25,849 bases of DNA from a virus (Duplodnaviria > Heunggongvirae > Uroviricota > Caudoviricetes). Within the stretch, counting starts at the first letter, position 1, and every line of letters starts with the position of its first letter. Positions 1,871 through 7,286 of the stretch are shown piece by piece. The notes beneath the pieces are model-generated. The model searched no databases, was not told where the DNA came from, and saw only the letters and a program-made list of their open reading frames with translations. Both the position numbers and the translations under genes were made by a program. The stretch is taken from the IMG/VR virus record IMGVR_UViG_2909246061_000004; one strand, 5' to 3'.

Positions 1871-1909
1871 TGTACTTTGCGTTCATTGTTGTAAAGTACT
1901 TTTAGTACA
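1871..1909. promoter_or_regulatory. Operator-like palindrome GTACTTT-N14-AAAGTAC plus an extra AGTACA, between the repressor stop and the dicB-operon start
   Basis: Inverted repeat seen directly; the same TGTACT hexamer recurs in the repressor-cro intergenic region. Confidence 0.3.
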
Positions 1910-1985
1910 TTTTGTGTGTAAAAAAATGAGATGGGATAAAGTGAAGCACAAACCCGGAGGAAGGCGCTACCGGATTTATGCTGGT

Positions 1986-2405
1986 TTAAGAGGCTTTTTG
2001 TTTTTTCTTTCGTGCTAACTCTTCGTAAATTGCATTGTACTTCTGTTTTTTCTCTTCAAGAGTTTTTAAAAGTTCATCTGTCTCACTGTCAGGGAGCTCG
2101 TCCAGAAGGTCAATGATGATTTTTTGTCTTGGATTTAACTCCTGATAGAAACGTACCTGTCCACTTTCTTCTGTATCCTCTCCCAAAAGATAGGTTGGTG
2201 TTGTTCCTATTAGTGTTGCTAATTCCCTTAATTTCTCCCGGCGAGGAATTGTTTCGCCATTAAACCATTTGCTAACCGCTTTTGGTGTTAATTTCATTCG
2301 ACGGGCAATTTCTGCCTGCCTTCCATGTTGTTCATAACCAGCGTTTTCACAGGCTAGCGCAAGCCTACTGGCGAACTCTTTACGCGCTTTATCTTCATGA
2401 ACCAT
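1986..2405 (-). CDS. Prophage repressor, DicA-like HTH (XRE-family) protein
   Basis: ATG at 2405; N-terminal HTH-like segment (QAEIARRMKLTPKAVSKWFNGETIP) and acidic/coiled C-terminus; divergent from a Cro-like gene. Confidence 0.7.
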   Translation of the reverse strand: MVHEDKARKEFASRLALACENAGYEQHGRQAEIARRMKLTPKAVSKWFNGETIPRREKLRELATLIGTTPTYLLGEDTEESGQVRFYQELNPRQKIIIDLLDELPDSETDELLKTLEEKKQKYNAIYEELARKKKQKAS

Positions 2406-2408
2406 AAG

Positions 2409-2460
2409 TTCAATGATATTCGCTCTTGAATGTACTGTCAGTTCTGTTATAGCATGTACT
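2409..2460. promoter_or_regulatory. Divergent promoter/operator region between repressor and cro-like gene: TTCAA-N12-TTGAA and two TGTACT hexamers
   Basis: Repeats seen directly in the 79-bp intergenic spacer between divergent immunity genes. Confidence 0.3.
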
Positions 2461-2484
2461 CAAAGTTCACATTGTGAGGGTGAT

Positions 2485-2739
2485 ATGAACCAGAAAACAC
2501 TTGAAGATGTAATCAAAACCGTTCGCGTTGCTGTTGTGGCCGACGTTTGTGGTGTCAGCCAAAGAGCAATCTATAAATGGATGGATAACGGAAAATTGCC
2601 TCGCACAGAATATACCGGCGAAACAAATTACGCTGAAAAAATCGCTCTTGCATCAAACGGATTATTTTCTGCCGATGCAATTTTAACTATTGGCAGGAAT
2701 AAAACTACTACGAAAAAGCTGATGGGAGTTGATTCATGA
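2485..2739 (+). CDS. Cro/DicC/YdaS-like small DNA-binding regulator
   Basis: ATG at 2485 preceded by GAGGG; motif CGVSQRAIYKWM typical of YdaS/Cro-like prophage regulators; divergent from repressor. Confidence 0.6.
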   Translation: MNQKTLEDVIKTVRVAVVADVCGVSQRAIYKWMDNGKLPRTEYTGETNYAEKIALASNGLFSADAILTIGRNKTTTKKLMGVDS

Positions 2740-3161
2740 AAATCAAGCATGAACACATCCGCATGGCGATGAATGCCTGGGCGCATCCGGACGGCGAAAA
2801 AGTACCGGCTGCGAAAATTACCAAAGCGTATTTCGAGCTGGGAATGACGTTCCCGGAACTGTATGACGACAGCCATCCGGAAGCCCTGGCTCGCAATACT
2901 CAGAAAATTTTCCGCTGGGTGGAGAAAGACACCCCTGATGCGGTTAAAAAAATTCAGGCGTTGTTACCAGCTATCGAAAAAGCAATGCCACCTCTGCTGG
3001 TGGCCCGAATGCGCAGTCATAGCTCAGCCTATTTTCGGGAACTAGTGGAGACGCGGGAACGACTGGTGAGAGACGCTGATGATTTTGTCGCAGTGGCGAT
3101 CGCTGGTTTCAACCAGATGAATCGTGGTGGCCCTGCAGGAAATATTGTGGCTGTGCATTGA
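2736..3161 (+). CDS. YdaT-like protein (CII-position gene)
   Basis: ATG at 2736 with GGGAG RBS; begins MKIKHEHI and ends ...VAVH as remembered for Rac YdaT-family proteins (memory only). Confidence 0.4.
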   Translation: MKIKHEHIRMAMNAWAHPDGEKVPAAKITKAYFELGMTFPELYDDSHPEALARNTQKIFRWVEKDTPDAVKKIQALLPAIEKAMPPLLVARMRSHSSAYFRELVETRERLVRDADDFVAVAIAGFNQMNRGGPAGNIVAVH

Positions 3162-3232
3162 CTCGCAATATTCATACCGGATCACTTCCGGCAATTTGTG
3201 AGTAAAAAGATTCGGTATCAAAAGAGGTGAGT

Positions 3233-4303
3233 ATGGCTAACGCCTGGCTCAGATTATGGCATGACATGCCAAATGACCCTAAGTGGCGAACAATTGCCAG
3301 GGTGTCAGGGCAGCCAATTGCAACAGTGATGGCAGTGTATATCCACCTCTTGGTGAGCGCGTCACGAAATGTCACGCGAGGTCACATTGATGTCACGACA
3401 GAAGATTTGGCAAGTGCGCTCGACGTGACAGAAGAGGTAATTGATTCAATTTTGCAGACGATGCAGGGGCGGGTACTTGATAGTGATTTAATCACTGGAT
3501 GGGAAAAACGCCAGGTGCTTAAAGAGGACAACGGCAATATTTCGCAAACCGCAAAATCTCCTGCAGAGCGCAAGAGGGCGCAGCGAGAGAGGGAAAGAAA
3601 GCGGGAACAAAATGGCGATTGTCACGGCGCGTCACGAAATGTCACGCACATGTCACGACGAGTCACGACAGATAAAGATACAGATAAAGATACAGATCAA
3701 GAAGATCAAAACACTATGGTCCATGGCGTAAAAAACGCCACGAACCAGGCAGGGGATGTTCAGACCGTCAATCTTGGTCAGCCAGCAGGCACGACACCGG
3801 AAGCCGATTCAGCGTATGCGCTGAAAGCCGATTCGGGCGCTGTGCAGCAGGTGATGACCGCAAGGCCGGAGCAATCACACCAACTGCAGCAGCCCGAAGC
3901 CGATTCCGCCATTCAGCGGGAAGCCTATCCGGTAGTCCCGGAAAACACCGGGCAGTCTGTGGGACGAGTGGATTATCCGGATGTGTTCGAACAGGTCTGG
4001 CGGGAGTACCCGTTGCGTGCCGGAGCAAACCCGAAGAAATCCGCTTTCAGTGCCTGGAAGGCCAGATTACGCGAGGGGGTGCCACCAGAGGCCATGCTGG
4101 ATGGCGTGAGGCGTTACGCAAGATACTTGGCGGCTACCGGGAAAACGGGAACGGAATTTGTTCAGCGAGCGACGACGTTTTTTGGACCGGACCGGAATTT
4201 TGAGAACCCCTGGTTGCTCCCGGTAAGCGGCACGAACAACCAGCGTTGTGTGAATCATATTTCTGAACCGGATAACGAAATTCCGCCGGGCTTCAGGGGG
4301 TAA
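3233..4303 (+). CDS. Phage replication initiation protein (O-like) with iterons inside its coding sequence
   Basis: ATG at 3233 with AGAGGTG RBS; N-terminus MANAWLRLWHDMPNDPKWRTIARVSG typical of prophage replication proteins; phased GTCACG repeats inside the gene. Confidence 0.55.
   Translation: MANAWLRLWHDMPNDPKWRTIARVSGQPIATVMAVYIHLLVSASRNVTRGHIDVTTEDLASALDVTEEVIDSILQTMQGRVLDSDLITGWEKRQVLKEDNGNISQTAKSPAERKRAQRERERKREQNGDCHGASRNVTHMSRRVTTDKDTDKDTDQEDQNTMVHGVKNATNQAGDVQTVNLGQPAGTTPEADSAYALKADSGAVQQVMTARPEQSHQLQQPEADSAIQREAYPVVPENTGQSVGRVDYPDVFEQVWREYPLRAGANPKKSAFSAWKARLREGVPPEAMLDGVRRYARYLAATGKTGTEFVQRATTFFGPDRNFENPWLLPVSGTNNQRCVNHISEPDNEIPPGFRG
3361..3397 (+). repeat. Iteron cluster 1: four GTCAC(G/A) copies at ~10-bp spacing
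   Basis: GTCACGAAATGTCACGCGAGGTCACATTGATGTCACG read directly. Confidence 0.5.
3621..3666 (+). repeat. Iteron cluster 2: five GTCACG copies at exact 10-bp spacing, followed by a GATAAAGATACA tandem duplication
   Basis: GTCACGGCGCGTCACGAAATGTCACGCACATGTCACGACGAGTCACG read directly. Confidence 0.55.
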
Positions 4304-4343
4304 GTATTAATTTCTGGTCATGAGGTAATTTTCAGGAGGGCTT

Positions 4344-4766
4344 GTGGCAAAAGTTTTTACACAAGAAGAGCGGGAAAAAATTAAAGGGCAGGTTGTTGAA
4401 CTCGTACGCCAGAGTGGGCGCGAGACGTTACGACAACTGGAAACTAAAACTGGGGCAACAAGATATCTGATGAGCGTTCTGGCCAGAGAGCTGGTTGCCA
4501 GTGGCGATGTATACAACTCTGGTTACGGGTTATTCCCGTCTGAACAGGCGCGTAAGGACTGGCAAAATGCCCGTAAAAAGCTCTCAAGGGCAAAGCTGAA
4601 GAAACCATCTGCGGTTGATCCGGACCTTATCTGGTCATTACCTGATGGAGAAATACGTCGTTACGACAGGCGTCATAATATGATTTGTACTGAGTGTCGT
4701 AAAAGCGAAGTTATGCAGCGCATATTGTCGTTTTATCAGGGGGATGTTCGGTATTTATTGAAGTGA
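4344..4766 (+). CDS. Hypothetical protein (140 aa), GTG start
   Basis: GTG at 4344 with AGGAGG 5 nt upstream; no family recognised. Confidence 0.45.
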   Translation: MAKVFTQEEREKIKGQVVELVRQSGRETLRQLETKTGATRYLMSVLARELVASGDVYNSGYGLFPSEQARKDWQNARKKLSRAKLKKPSAVDPDLIWSLPDGEIRRYDRRHNMICTECRKSEVMQRILSFYQGDVRYLLK

Positions 4767-6050
4767 CGAGATTAAAGTGCATTAGTTCAGATGCAAATTG
4801 ACATTTTGTGGCACAGGGTAGAGCTAGCGTGGTTGTCCGCTTTGTGCCAACAGCGGACATTATGGAAGGTCAGAGTTAAAGATTAAAATGGGATGCTGTG
4901 TGTTTTCTCCAGGTTTTGCTCTATACCTTTCGGGATACTCCACCGACAGAATACGAAAATCAACATTATCAACGGCTCGAAGTGTCTAGATTATCCATGG
5001 CAATTCATGGGAAATCCCATCCAACGGCTTATGCTTCATGTTGCTTTTTGAGATCGCTTCTAGCATAGCTCCACTCAATAATGTTGTCGGGTCGTTGCTG
5101 ATCGAAAAGGATACGGGATTCAATACCATTACCTAAAAAGCTGGTATTCCCATCTACGTAAGAAGCTATCCCTTGTGAACCAACACGAAGAATATTTTCT
5201 AATGGCTGTTTTGTTCTTGCTGCATCGCTAAGGAGATATAAACCCGGGTACGTTTTGTTAGCACGGTGAAAAAAAAGTTCATTGTCAAAACACATGACGA
5301 TGATTATTTGTCCCGACATGAGATCGGAGAGCATTTCAGTTGGCAGATGCAAACTCATAAATGGTCGAGACAAAGGGTCAAAGAATGAATCATTTATATT
5401 CACAACAGGGCTTTTTATACCGAGACTATCCATCCATCCATTGAAGGCAACAAAGCCCATTTCAGAATCACGGTACATACCTAAGAACAAACATTCATCA
5501 ATAGTATCAATTGCCCAATTTTTTCCTCCGCGAATAATCTCCCACATTTTAACTAAGCGGTGGGTATAAAATTCAGACGGATGATCTATCTCATTGATTT
5601 TAACTTTAGACTGATGAAAGTTGTCAAAGCCCTCGCCAGTATTAATCGCCTCCAGAACATTCATGCCACGAATGATTTGCCTTTTTATGCGATTAAATTG
5701 CTTAACATCATTATCAGGCATATTGTTAATGAAGTTTTCTTCAAAGTGCGGACATTCTGAGATAACAGAAAATTCAGCAGCTTCATAAAGCTCATTATTC
5801 TTTTCACCTGTTTTAACTTCCACGAGCTGGAAGCCATCCAGTAGATTAAAGGTGACTAAATCTCCCACATGAACAAATGTGCTCATGTCAGAGACAATCG
5901 CTACGGAGTGTTTGTCCTGGTTGATAAGATCGGCTGCGACCATAGAATCAATTATGTTATCTTCTGATAGATTGTCATTGCTTGCATTAATAGGTAAACG
6001 CCGCAAACTAGAGTGTTCTTCATCAAGAATGCTCCAAATTATTGAGTCAA

Positions 6051-6059
6051 TACAACGGC
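6051..6059. repeat. IS1 target-site duplication, left copy (TACAACGGC)
   Basis: Identical 9-mer at 6828..6836 directly flanking the other IS1 end. Confidence 0.85.
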
Positions 6060-6074
6060 GGTAATGACTCCAAC

Positions 6075-6578
6075 TTATTGATAGTGTTTTATGTTCAGAT
6101 AATGCCCGATGACTTTGTCATGCAGCTCCACCGATTTTGAGAACGACAGCGACTTCCGTCCCAGCCGTGCCAGGTGCTGCCTCAGATTCAGGTTATGCCG
6201 CTCAATTCGCTGCGTATATCGCTTGCTGATTACGTGCAGCTTTCCCTTCAGGCGGGATTCATACAGCGGCCAGCCATCCGTCATCCATATCACCACGTCA
6301 AAGGGTGACAGCAGGCTCATAAGACGCCCCAGCGTCGCCATAGTGCGTTCACCGAATACGTGCGCAACAACCGTCTTCCGGAGCCTGTCATACGCGTAAA
6401 ACAGCCAGCGCTGGCGCGATTTAGCCCCGACATAGCCCCACTGTTCGTCCATTTCCGCGCAGACGATGACGTCACTGCCCGGCTGTATGCGCGAGGTTAC
6501 CGACTGCGGCCTGAGTTTTTTAAATGGCGGAAAATCGTGTTGAGGCCAACGCCCATAATGCGGGCGGTTGCCCGGCAT
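6075..6578 (-). CDS. insB: IS1 InsB (transposase C-terminal frame)
   Basis: 167-aa ORF matching remembered IS1 InsB. Confidence 0.9.
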
Positions 6579-6772
6579 CCAACGCCATTCATGGCCATAT
6601 CAATGATTTTCTGGTGCGTACCGGGTTGAGAAGCGGTGTAAGTGAACTGCAGTTGCCATGTTTTACGGCAGTGAGAGCAGAGATAGCGCTGATGTCCGGC
6701 AGTGCTTTTGCCGTTACGCACCACCCCGTCAGTAGCTGAACAGGAGGGACAGCTGATAGAAACAGAAGCCAC
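6497..6772 (-). CDS. insA: IS1 InsA
   Basis: 91-aa [43 protein letters not shown]... matching remembered IS1 InsA. Confidence 0.9.
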
Positions 6773-6827
6773 TGGAGCACCTCAAAAACACCATCATACA
6801 CTAAATCAGTAAGTTGGCAGCATCACC

Positions 6828-6836
6828 TACAACGGC
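6828..6836. repeat. IS1 target-site duplication, right copy (TACAACGGC)
   Basis: Identical to 6051..6059. Confidence 0.85.
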
Positions 6837-7286
6837 GAAGAATAAGAATTTCAAATTTTTTTAAACTTATTTCATCAATACACTTTTCTTTATTTTCTTT
6901 ATCCTTGTTTCGATGGTGCTCTTTTTTTTCAGTTTTCAATCTTTTTATATCTCTCAGCCGAATAATAATCTCAAAAGATATGATTTTTTGTGAGTCTTTC
7001 CAATTTTTGAGACAGGTTTCATACTCTGCAAGAAAATCCTCATCATTGGAAGGTAGTTCTTGAATTGGATTCCCTCCCCTTATCATTTTGGCAAGTGCAT
7101 GCATTAAAGATACATAATGAGGTGATAAAATTGTCCAAAACTTCCTAAACGGTTTGTACTTTTCAAGAAAAGTTGACTCATCAGTATAATTCATCATAAC
7201 CAAACCTCATTCCTCTTATCTATTTTCCTCAAGGTATAAAATACCAGCCTTTTTTACATAATTATAGTTATAATATGAAGTCTCAT

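Follow-up and report, generated by a model that had tools for sequence, protein, structure and literature searches.

A 25,849 nucleotide record of a Caudoviricetes virus (IMG/VR record IMGVR_UViG_2909246061_000004; referred to here as the window) derives from a Qin-like lambdoid prophage of Escherichia coli. It carries, on the + strand at 3233–4303, a gene for a replication initiator of 356 amino acids (aa), recognized from its open reading frame and translation, its match to phrog_3729 and an AlphaFold2 model. Two arrays of phased GTCAC(G/A) hexamers within this gene, together with an adjoining A+T-rich tract, probably constitute the replication origin of the prophage, placed inside the coding sequence of its own initiator. 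Judged from comparative sequence analysis, the assignment of the arrays as a functional protein-binding DNA element appears firmer still than the origin assignment itself. A preliminary description of this DNA had proposed a lambda-like candidate origin, with iterons and an A+T-rich region inside a replication gene, and this proposal is supported by conservation of the hexamers at the DNA level, concerted change of hexamer type in the two arrays, low stability of the A+T-rich tract and co-inheritance with the N-terminal domain of the initiator.

Array 1 (3361–3397, + strand) consists of four GTCAC(G/A) copies beginning at 3361, 3371, 3381 (GTCACA) and 3392, with spacings of 10, 10 and 11 bp. 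Array 2 (3621–3667, + strand) consists of five GTCACG copies beginning at 3621, 3631, 3641, 3652 and 3662, with spacings of 10, 10, 11 and 10 bp, and lies approximately 260 bp from array 1. These positions bear out the nine same-strand copies in two clusters described previously, together with the bounds given for the first cluster; the second cluster ends at 3667 rather than 3666, and the reported 10 bp spacing applies to most copies but not to one 11 bp gap in each array. A single inverted GTCACG (3424–3429, - strand) was overlooked in that description and supplies the Val65 codon GTG and the AC of the Thr66 codon, in the turn between the helices at aa 56–63 and 67–77. A 19-nt string, GCGTCACGAAATGTCACGC, recurs without change, at 3359 and at 3629. 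The last part of a helix (aa 29–45) and the loop at aa 46–55 (SRNVTRGHIDVT) are encoded by array 1. Array 2 falls where the disordered interdomain linker begins (aa 130–145), directly beside the A+T-rich tract, and the two together encode aa 130–161, from the last part of a basic helix into the disordered segment. As had been recognized, the repeats encode recurring peptides, ASRNVT at aa 43–48 and 133–138 and VTT at aa 54–56 and 144–146.

Over the whole window the hexamer is not enriched (24 copies, 19.9 expected). Its clustering is non-random, with five same-strand copies in 50 bp against a maximum of two in 300 first-order Markov simulations, and no other phased hexamer cluster was found in the 25.8 kb. 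A loose GTCAC group at 657–731 has gaps of 29 and 41 bp, is unphased and was taken as chance. Neither DnaA boxes nor IHF sites were found in the origin region. The sole perfect DnaA box (TTTTACACA) lies at 4355–4363, in the first part of the DUF977 gene and approximately 650 bp from the A+T-rich tract, and may be a chance occurrence. A promoter and terminator scan of 1900–4900 gave counts matching the shuffled expectation, and a promoter-like match within array 2 (- strand, 9 of 12 positions) was regarded as evidence of nothing.

A protein database search with the N-terminal 170 aa of the initiator gave 961 relatives, encoded by gamma- and beta-proteobacterial phages and prophages, and a homologue sample of 43 loci was assembled with one genome per species. 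In approximately 25 loci, whose initiator genes range in G+C content (GC) from 0.42 to 0.69, GTCAC is present at identical gene offsets, with array 1 copies at 128, 138, 148 and 159 and 3–6 array 2 copies starting from approximately 370–410 (later in L014 and L027), and the bases between copies are free to vary. Homologue arrays contain 3–6 copies each and 134 of 149 gaps measure 10 or 11 bp. With regard to homologous genes lacking the repeats, the outcome named in the preliminary description as counting against an origin, the homologues examined either keep the repeats or carry a different phased hexamer in the same places. Insertions or deletions of 7 aa (TCHGVSL; HMSRRVT) distinguish homologues in both arrays (alignment A1 columns 49–55 and about 150–156; L002 and L046) and correspond to 21 bp, or two iterons of 10 + 11 bp, so that gain or loss of an iteron pair preserves the reading frame. 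The distance between the arrays shifts across loci in steps of approximately 10 bp, which fits helical phasing and plain gain or loss of iterons alike.

The A+T-rich, A-skewed tract occupies 3668–3715 and consists of ACAGATAAAGAT repeated 2.9 times (3668–3702, Tandem Repeats Finder), corresponding to the tandem duplication previously reported to follow the iterons, and then GATCAAGAAGATCAAAAC. GC is 0.33–0.35 over 3660–3720, and the A skew is strong. No 40-mer within the immunity and replication module (1900–4800) is less stable than that at 3671–3710 (-44.7 kcal/mol; the next least stable in the initiator gene is -51.1 kcal/mol), which lies at the 98th percentile of the 25.8 kb window. A bias in codon choice accompanies the tract in other lineages. 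In the 36 nt past the last array 2 copy in 26 loci, GAT outnumbers GAC by 82:2 and AAA outnumbers AAG by 68:12, compared with 246:299 and 184:190, respectively, in the rest of the same genes (p 4e-23 and 1e-9). The resulting tract is AGATAAAGATAAAGA-like with a GC of 0.17–0.43, even where gene GC reaches 0.69. These data suggest that the tract at 3668–3715 is probably a DNA unwinding element.

Nearly all lineages keep both array 2 and the tract, and for this reason the two look like the core origin, with array 2 as its probable initiator-binding site. In approximately 13 lineages array 2 is kept and a phased array 1 is absent by the criterion used, so array 1 is probably auxiliary. The same observation is relevant to a different explanation, in which the arrays are bound by the initiator mainly for purposes of control, either autoregulation by blocking rightward transcription or copy control by handcuffing, and the true origin lies elsewhere in the prophage. 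In keeping with this, array 1 is situated inside a transcribed coding sequence, 260 bp from the tract and with no A+T-rich neighbour of its own, and the lineages without it indicate that the arrays need not share a job. However, array 2 is always followed directly by the conserved, least stable A+T-rich tract, the signature of an unwinding element and not of an operator; the window contains no second phased cluster of the hexamer; and the interdomain linker is the position occupied in proven origins. A purely regulatory role is thus considered unlikely, and an origin within the initiator gene remains the favoured assignment.

Two other features adjoin the tract. An imperfect palindrome, TGGTCCATGGCG-TAAAAA-CGCCACGAACCA, detected in the terminator scan, occupies 3717–3747 with a 13-pair stem (G-T pairs allowed). 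Hairpin-capable repeats following the tract are modestly enriched over background windows among 96 distinct genes (6.44 versus 5.95 pairs, Wilcoxon p 0.001), and because this enrichment is modest the palindrome is put forward only as what may be a third origin element. G+C-rich inverted repeats lie directly past the tract in L003, L010, L013, L014, L017, L020, L024 and L042, for example TCTCTCTCTCC-TGAC-GGAGAGAGAGA in L017 and CCCCCC...GGGGGG in L014, L024 and L042, sharing position and differing in sequence. GATC (Dam) sites are present at the distal end of the tract (3695–3698 and 3704–3707), and GATC follows array 2 at the same place in enterobacterial and other loci (L005, L013, L021, L025, L026 and L035), which hints at control of the origin by methylation or SeqA.

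A first scan of viral contigs with the family alignment yielded nothing beyond E. coli copies of 99% identity and so did not broaden the gene set; contigs seeded by divergent members brought it to 97 distinct genes. Diverged lineages without GTCAC were found to carry the alternative hexamers GTAACG, CGAACG, GCAACG, GTGACG, GAAACG or ACTACG, which occupy the same two sites at the same 10–11 bp spacing, giving seven types, all of the form NNNACG. Words were called independently in each region. A phased word was present in both regions in 77 of the 97 genes, and in 75 of these 77 the word was the same or overlapping in the two arrays, the remaining two carrying the same unit inverted or shifted. 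The two arrays therefore change specificity in concert. More than one type coexists within a host group, GTCACG with GTAACG in Enterobacterales and GTCACG with CGAACG in Pseudomonas, and this indicates that the reader of the hexamer is phage-specific and not a fixed host factor. Across the types (L001–L225) the AMQGRV motif of the initiator (aa 76–82, running from the last part of the putative recognition helix into the wing) hardly changes, and co-variation is confined to hexamer positions 1–3 and the loop at aa 44–55.

The component of the locus with which the arrays travel was apparent both from gene content and from recombination joints. Homologues of the CI, Cro, YdaT-like and DUF977 proteins and of the initiator's C-terminal domain are found in 1–6 of the 43 loci, while the N-terminal domain is found in all 43. 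Some E. coli prophages share only query 1–591 (window 3100–3690) and continue into a DnaT-like C-terminal domain followed by a P-like loader gene; a protein with the same N-terminal domain and another C-terminal domain keeps 6 + 5 GTCACG copies. Other records share only query 609–1203. Conversely, gp15 of Shigella phage 75/02 Stx (Shiga toxin) joins the window's C-terminal domain to an unrelated N-terminal domain, is followed by a DnaC-like loader and has no GTCACG. Because the shared segments stop at query 591 in one group and begin at 609 in the other, a mosaic joint lies inside the A+T-rich tract, and a joint in this position means that the N-terminal domain and the arrays move as one module. 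These data indicate that the arrays are inherited together with the N-terminal domain only. It could still be supposed that the hexamers are bound by another protein, whether CI, Cro, the YdaT-like protein, the DUF977 protein or a host factor, for a function unrelated to the N-terminal domain, given that the conserved recognition-helix motif stays constant as the hexamer changes. Against this, the arrays persist although homologues of those four phage proteins occur in only 1–5 of 43 loci, and a fixed host factor is at odds with the different hexamer types seen within the same host groups. A binder other than the initiator is accordingly regarded as very unlikely.

That the hexamers are constrained as nucleotides is evident from the codons they provide. 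The residues S44, V47, T48, R49, G50, H51, V54, T55, V65, T66, S134, R135, V144 and T145 are invariant or nearly so in the family, and most invariant residues are those encoded by hexamer copies. The hexamer is read in three frames: tCA CGn gives Ser-Arg, GTC ACG gives Val-Thr and gGT CAC gives Gly-His, with Cys-His as an alternative in this third frame. Among 21 non-identical genes the codons are essentially fixed: TCA in 20 of 21, GTC in 21 of 21 at both Val47 and Val54, ACG in 21 of 21 and 20 of 21, GGT in 21 of 21 and CAC in 20 of 20. The Val65 codon of the inverted copy is GTG in 18 of 18 loci. By comparison, synonymous entropy is 1.5–2.2 bits where Val, Thr, Gly, Ser or Arg is invariant elsewhere in the initiator gene and 1.76 bits at the spacer codon R49. 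For the GTCACG type as a whole, mean synonymous entropy is 0.32 bits inside the array versus 1.46 bits outside (p 3.5e-5), and the result is replicated in 16 sequences of the CGAACG type (0.26 versus 1.34 bits, p 2.4e-5) and 11 of the GCAACG type (0.23 versus 0.92 bits, p 5e-4). These data indicate that the hexamers are under selection as DNA and not as protein. The idea that the repeats are a by-product of selection for a repeated peptide or on the mRNA (structure or translation speed), with no function in double-stranded DNA, finds some encouragement in the near-invariance of the encoded residues and the retention of R49-G50 in all hexamer types, but is hardly credible when one hexamer yields different peptides (SR, VT and GH) in three frames, synonymous sites are frozen within it and free at neighbouring invariant residues, both arrays switch hexamer together and neither array folds better than shuffled RNA (z -1.43 and +0.12).

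Array 1 overlaps the coding sequence for the surface loop at aa 44–55, directly before the helix-turn-helix of the domain presumed to read the hexamer, and a change of iteron therefore rewrites the loop. Loop variants differ by type (SRNVTRGHxDVT, SNATERGRTQ, ATQCNADATRGN and others), with R49-G50 kept throughout. This raises the proposal, at present a doubtful one, that this loop recognizes the hexamer's variable 5' half, such that binding site and specificity determinant share the same nucleotides. If so, initiator and origin would be physically coupled, which could drive the fast birth of new compatible replicon specificities.

The initiator itself matches phrog_3729 ('replication initiation protein') from end to end (E 4.9e-255) and is named 'phage replisome organizer' by NCBI. 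No Pfam-A family was matched at E <= 0.01, and hence neither Phage_rep_O nor RepA_N. Some phage records label the gene 'DNA replication protein O', a label with no profile match behind it. The profile TIGR01714 (phage_rep_org_N) aligned to aa 5–125 (model 1–119) with 16.2 bits against a cut-off of 49.8 (E 0.009), a score below that of a family member and consistent with a possible distant relationship. In the AlphaFold2 model, built from 62 aligned sequences and with predicted local distance difference test (pLDDT) scores above 85 for most of aa 11–90, the N-terminal domain contains helices at aa 2–10, 16–25, 29–45, 56–63 and 67–77, of which the last two form the helix-turn-helix, and a beta hairpin at aa 78–87. 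A basic helix (aa 110–130), a disordered segment (aa 138–239, pLDDT below 50) and a helical C-terminal domain (aa 245–335, with helices at aa 249–317) follow. The predicted N-terminal DNA-binding domain (aa 1–125; 3233–3607, + strand) is a candidate for a winged-helix fold resembling the DnaD N-terminal domain or RepA_N; neither Foldseek against the PDB nor a search of its sequences by profile gave a significant match. The gene had been called O-like in the preliminary description, which holds for its lambda-like organization and not for homology to O, there being no Pfam match and a candidate fold resembling the DnaD N-terminal domain.

The exchangeable C-terminal domain (aa 245–356; 3965–4303, + strand) matches phrog_1701 ('DnaD-like helicase loader', E 9e-62). 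The last 25 residues (aa 333–356; 4229–4300) nearly match the C-terminus of E. coli DnaT (QRCVNHISEPDNEIPPGFRG; 6aep_A, E 2.8e-4), and only positions 156–179 of the DnaT profile NF002770 are matched (19.3 bits, cut-off 201). Identification of the initiator as DnaT was rejected, as only the last 21–25 residues match and the DnaT DNA-binding domain PF17948 is absent; PF17948 is present in sister proteins with another C-terminal domain. The ending PGFRG recurs in homologues with other C-terminal domains (P0040, P0045, P0046 and P0056). The DnaT-like tail may mimic the contact of DnaT with a host partner. A helicase-loader gene is absent after the initiator both in the window (4303–5029) and in phage Tritos, where only the DUF977 gene follows. 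In mosaic relatives that share its C-terminal or its N-terminal domain, a DnaC-like or a lambda P-like loader comes next (loci compared: L045, 1989–2729, and L046, 2667–3128).

From these features five mechanistic steps may be inferred. Monomers of the putative winged-helix N-terminal domain would each bind a GTCACG hexamer, spaced by one helical turn along a single DNA face, and a protein filament would form on array 2 (3621–3667) with a second on array 1 (3361–3397). The nucleoprotein complex, supercoiling and rightward transcription through the gene would together melt the (GATAAA)n-type tract (3668–3715). The C-terminal domain, which presumably recruits the host helicase-loading machinery, would bring it in with the aid of the DnaT-like tail; host machinery would be needed because the module has no phage-encoded loader. 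Array 2 and the A+T-rich tract would act as the core origin, and for array 1 the possible roles would be looping-based enhancement, autoregulation or copy control.

The initiator gene is preceded in the window by genes for a CI-like repressor (1986–2405, - strand), a Cro-like helix-turn-helix protein (2413–2739) and a YdaT/cII-like protein (2736–3161) and followed by one for a DUF977/Ren-like protein (4344–4766). Positions 3100–4400 are 100% identical to E. coli strain ECCWS199, where int, xis, exo, dicB and ydfD border the module at one end and hokD, ydfU and Q at its other end. Copies covering at least 80% of the query were present in 1645 of 5426 complete E. coli genomes, and Pseudomonas, Bordetella, Serratia, Aeromonas, Ralstonia and other bacteria have phages or prophages that carry relatives. 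Further downstream, an IS1 element (transposase open reading frame 6075–6578, PF03400, E 2e-78) within 5029–7203 apparently splits a hypothetical gene into 5029–6006 and 6823–7203; this gene is intact in ECCWS199 (463 aa; L044 7930–9321), beside an AbiH gene. Some of the sampled copies come from short contigs assigned to unrelated phyla. L043 (a Collinsella metagenome-assembled genome) and P0044 (a Staphylococcus saprophyticus record) are 98–100% identical to the E. coli gene, and L023 (an Anaerolineaceae metagenome-assembled genome) is near-identical to the Castellaniella locus L019; contamination or mis-binning is the most likely source of all three.

Searches of the literature on the hexamer, on longer strings and on non-lambdoid Stx phage replication regions found no description of these repeats; a search with a 7-mer was uninformative, the string being too common. 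The type of origin is well known, whereas the initiator family is unstudied and the origin of this module is new in the searchable literature. Its location provides a target for work on how prophages are induced and how their copy number is set, Stx-phage relatives with the same N-terminal domain included, and hexamer type could be used in predicting replicon incompatibility between co-resident prophages or in the design of small phage-derived replicons. The arrays are also a clean natural case of one stretch of DNA selected both as a three-frame protein code and as a protein-binding array. Interest in the system lies in this overlapping-code signal, in the switchable hexamer specificities and in the frequency of the module among E. 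coli genomes.

Among known systems, the closest in layout are the origins of phage lambda and of Stx phages P27 and 933W, in which iterons and then an A+T-rich tract lie in the middle of gene O; two extra iterons in Stx phages add 13 aa to the O protein (PMC7466680). The element described here is likewise located mid-gene, with iterons and tract at the interdomain linker as in lambda O (PMC7466680). Iteron number similarly alters protein length, here through the 7-aa (21 bp, two-iteron) insertions or deletions, and in both cases the gene lies behind cro and cII-like genes in the early rightward operon and the N-terminal half and origin are exchanged as one module. There are also clear differences. 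Lambda iterons are approximately 19 bp long, whereas the present repeats have a 6 bp core with no internal dyad at a spacing of 10–11 bp. Two arrays are present 260 bp apart, one of them within the coding sequence of the DNA-binding domain, no P-like loader gene follows the initiator in the prophage of the window, and the initiator is not an O homologue. The likeness to lambda ori is therefore one of organization and not of descent.

In Bacillus phage SPP1, oriL lies within gene 38 and comprises AB boxes bound by G38P and an adjacent A+T-rich unwinding element (PMC5737612). Repeats with an adjoining A+T-rich tract inside the initiator gene are a shared feature; the NCBI name of the present initiator is 'phage replisome organizer', and its match to TIGR01714 is weak and below the cut-off. 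SPP1 differs in encoding its own loader and helicase (G39P and G40P), neither of which is present in the window, and in that G38P also binds a distant oriR, whereas the window contains no other cluster. In plasmid pSK41, the winged helix-turn-helix N-terminal domain of Rep binds Rep boxes central in rep, the origin encodes the linker and the C-terminal domain is host-specific; in pPR9 the N-terminal domain and origin have been swapped as a module (PMC5703833). The placement of array 2 and the A+T-rich tract at the start of the linker resembles that in this RepA_N protein. The present initiator, in contrast, has no Pfam RepA_N match, belongs to a proteobacterial phage rather than a Firmicutes plasmid, has an extra array in the sequence encoding the N-terminal domain and bears a DnaT-like tail on its C-terminal domain, where that of pSK41 Rep contacts DnaG. 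The features common to these systems, a repeat array, an adjoining A+T-rich tract and a linker location within the initiator coding sequence, are all found here, with array 1 in the N-terminal domain as an addition, and the element is best read as an iteron-plus-unwinding-element theta origin of the class represented by lambda ori, SPP1 oriL and pSK41 ori.

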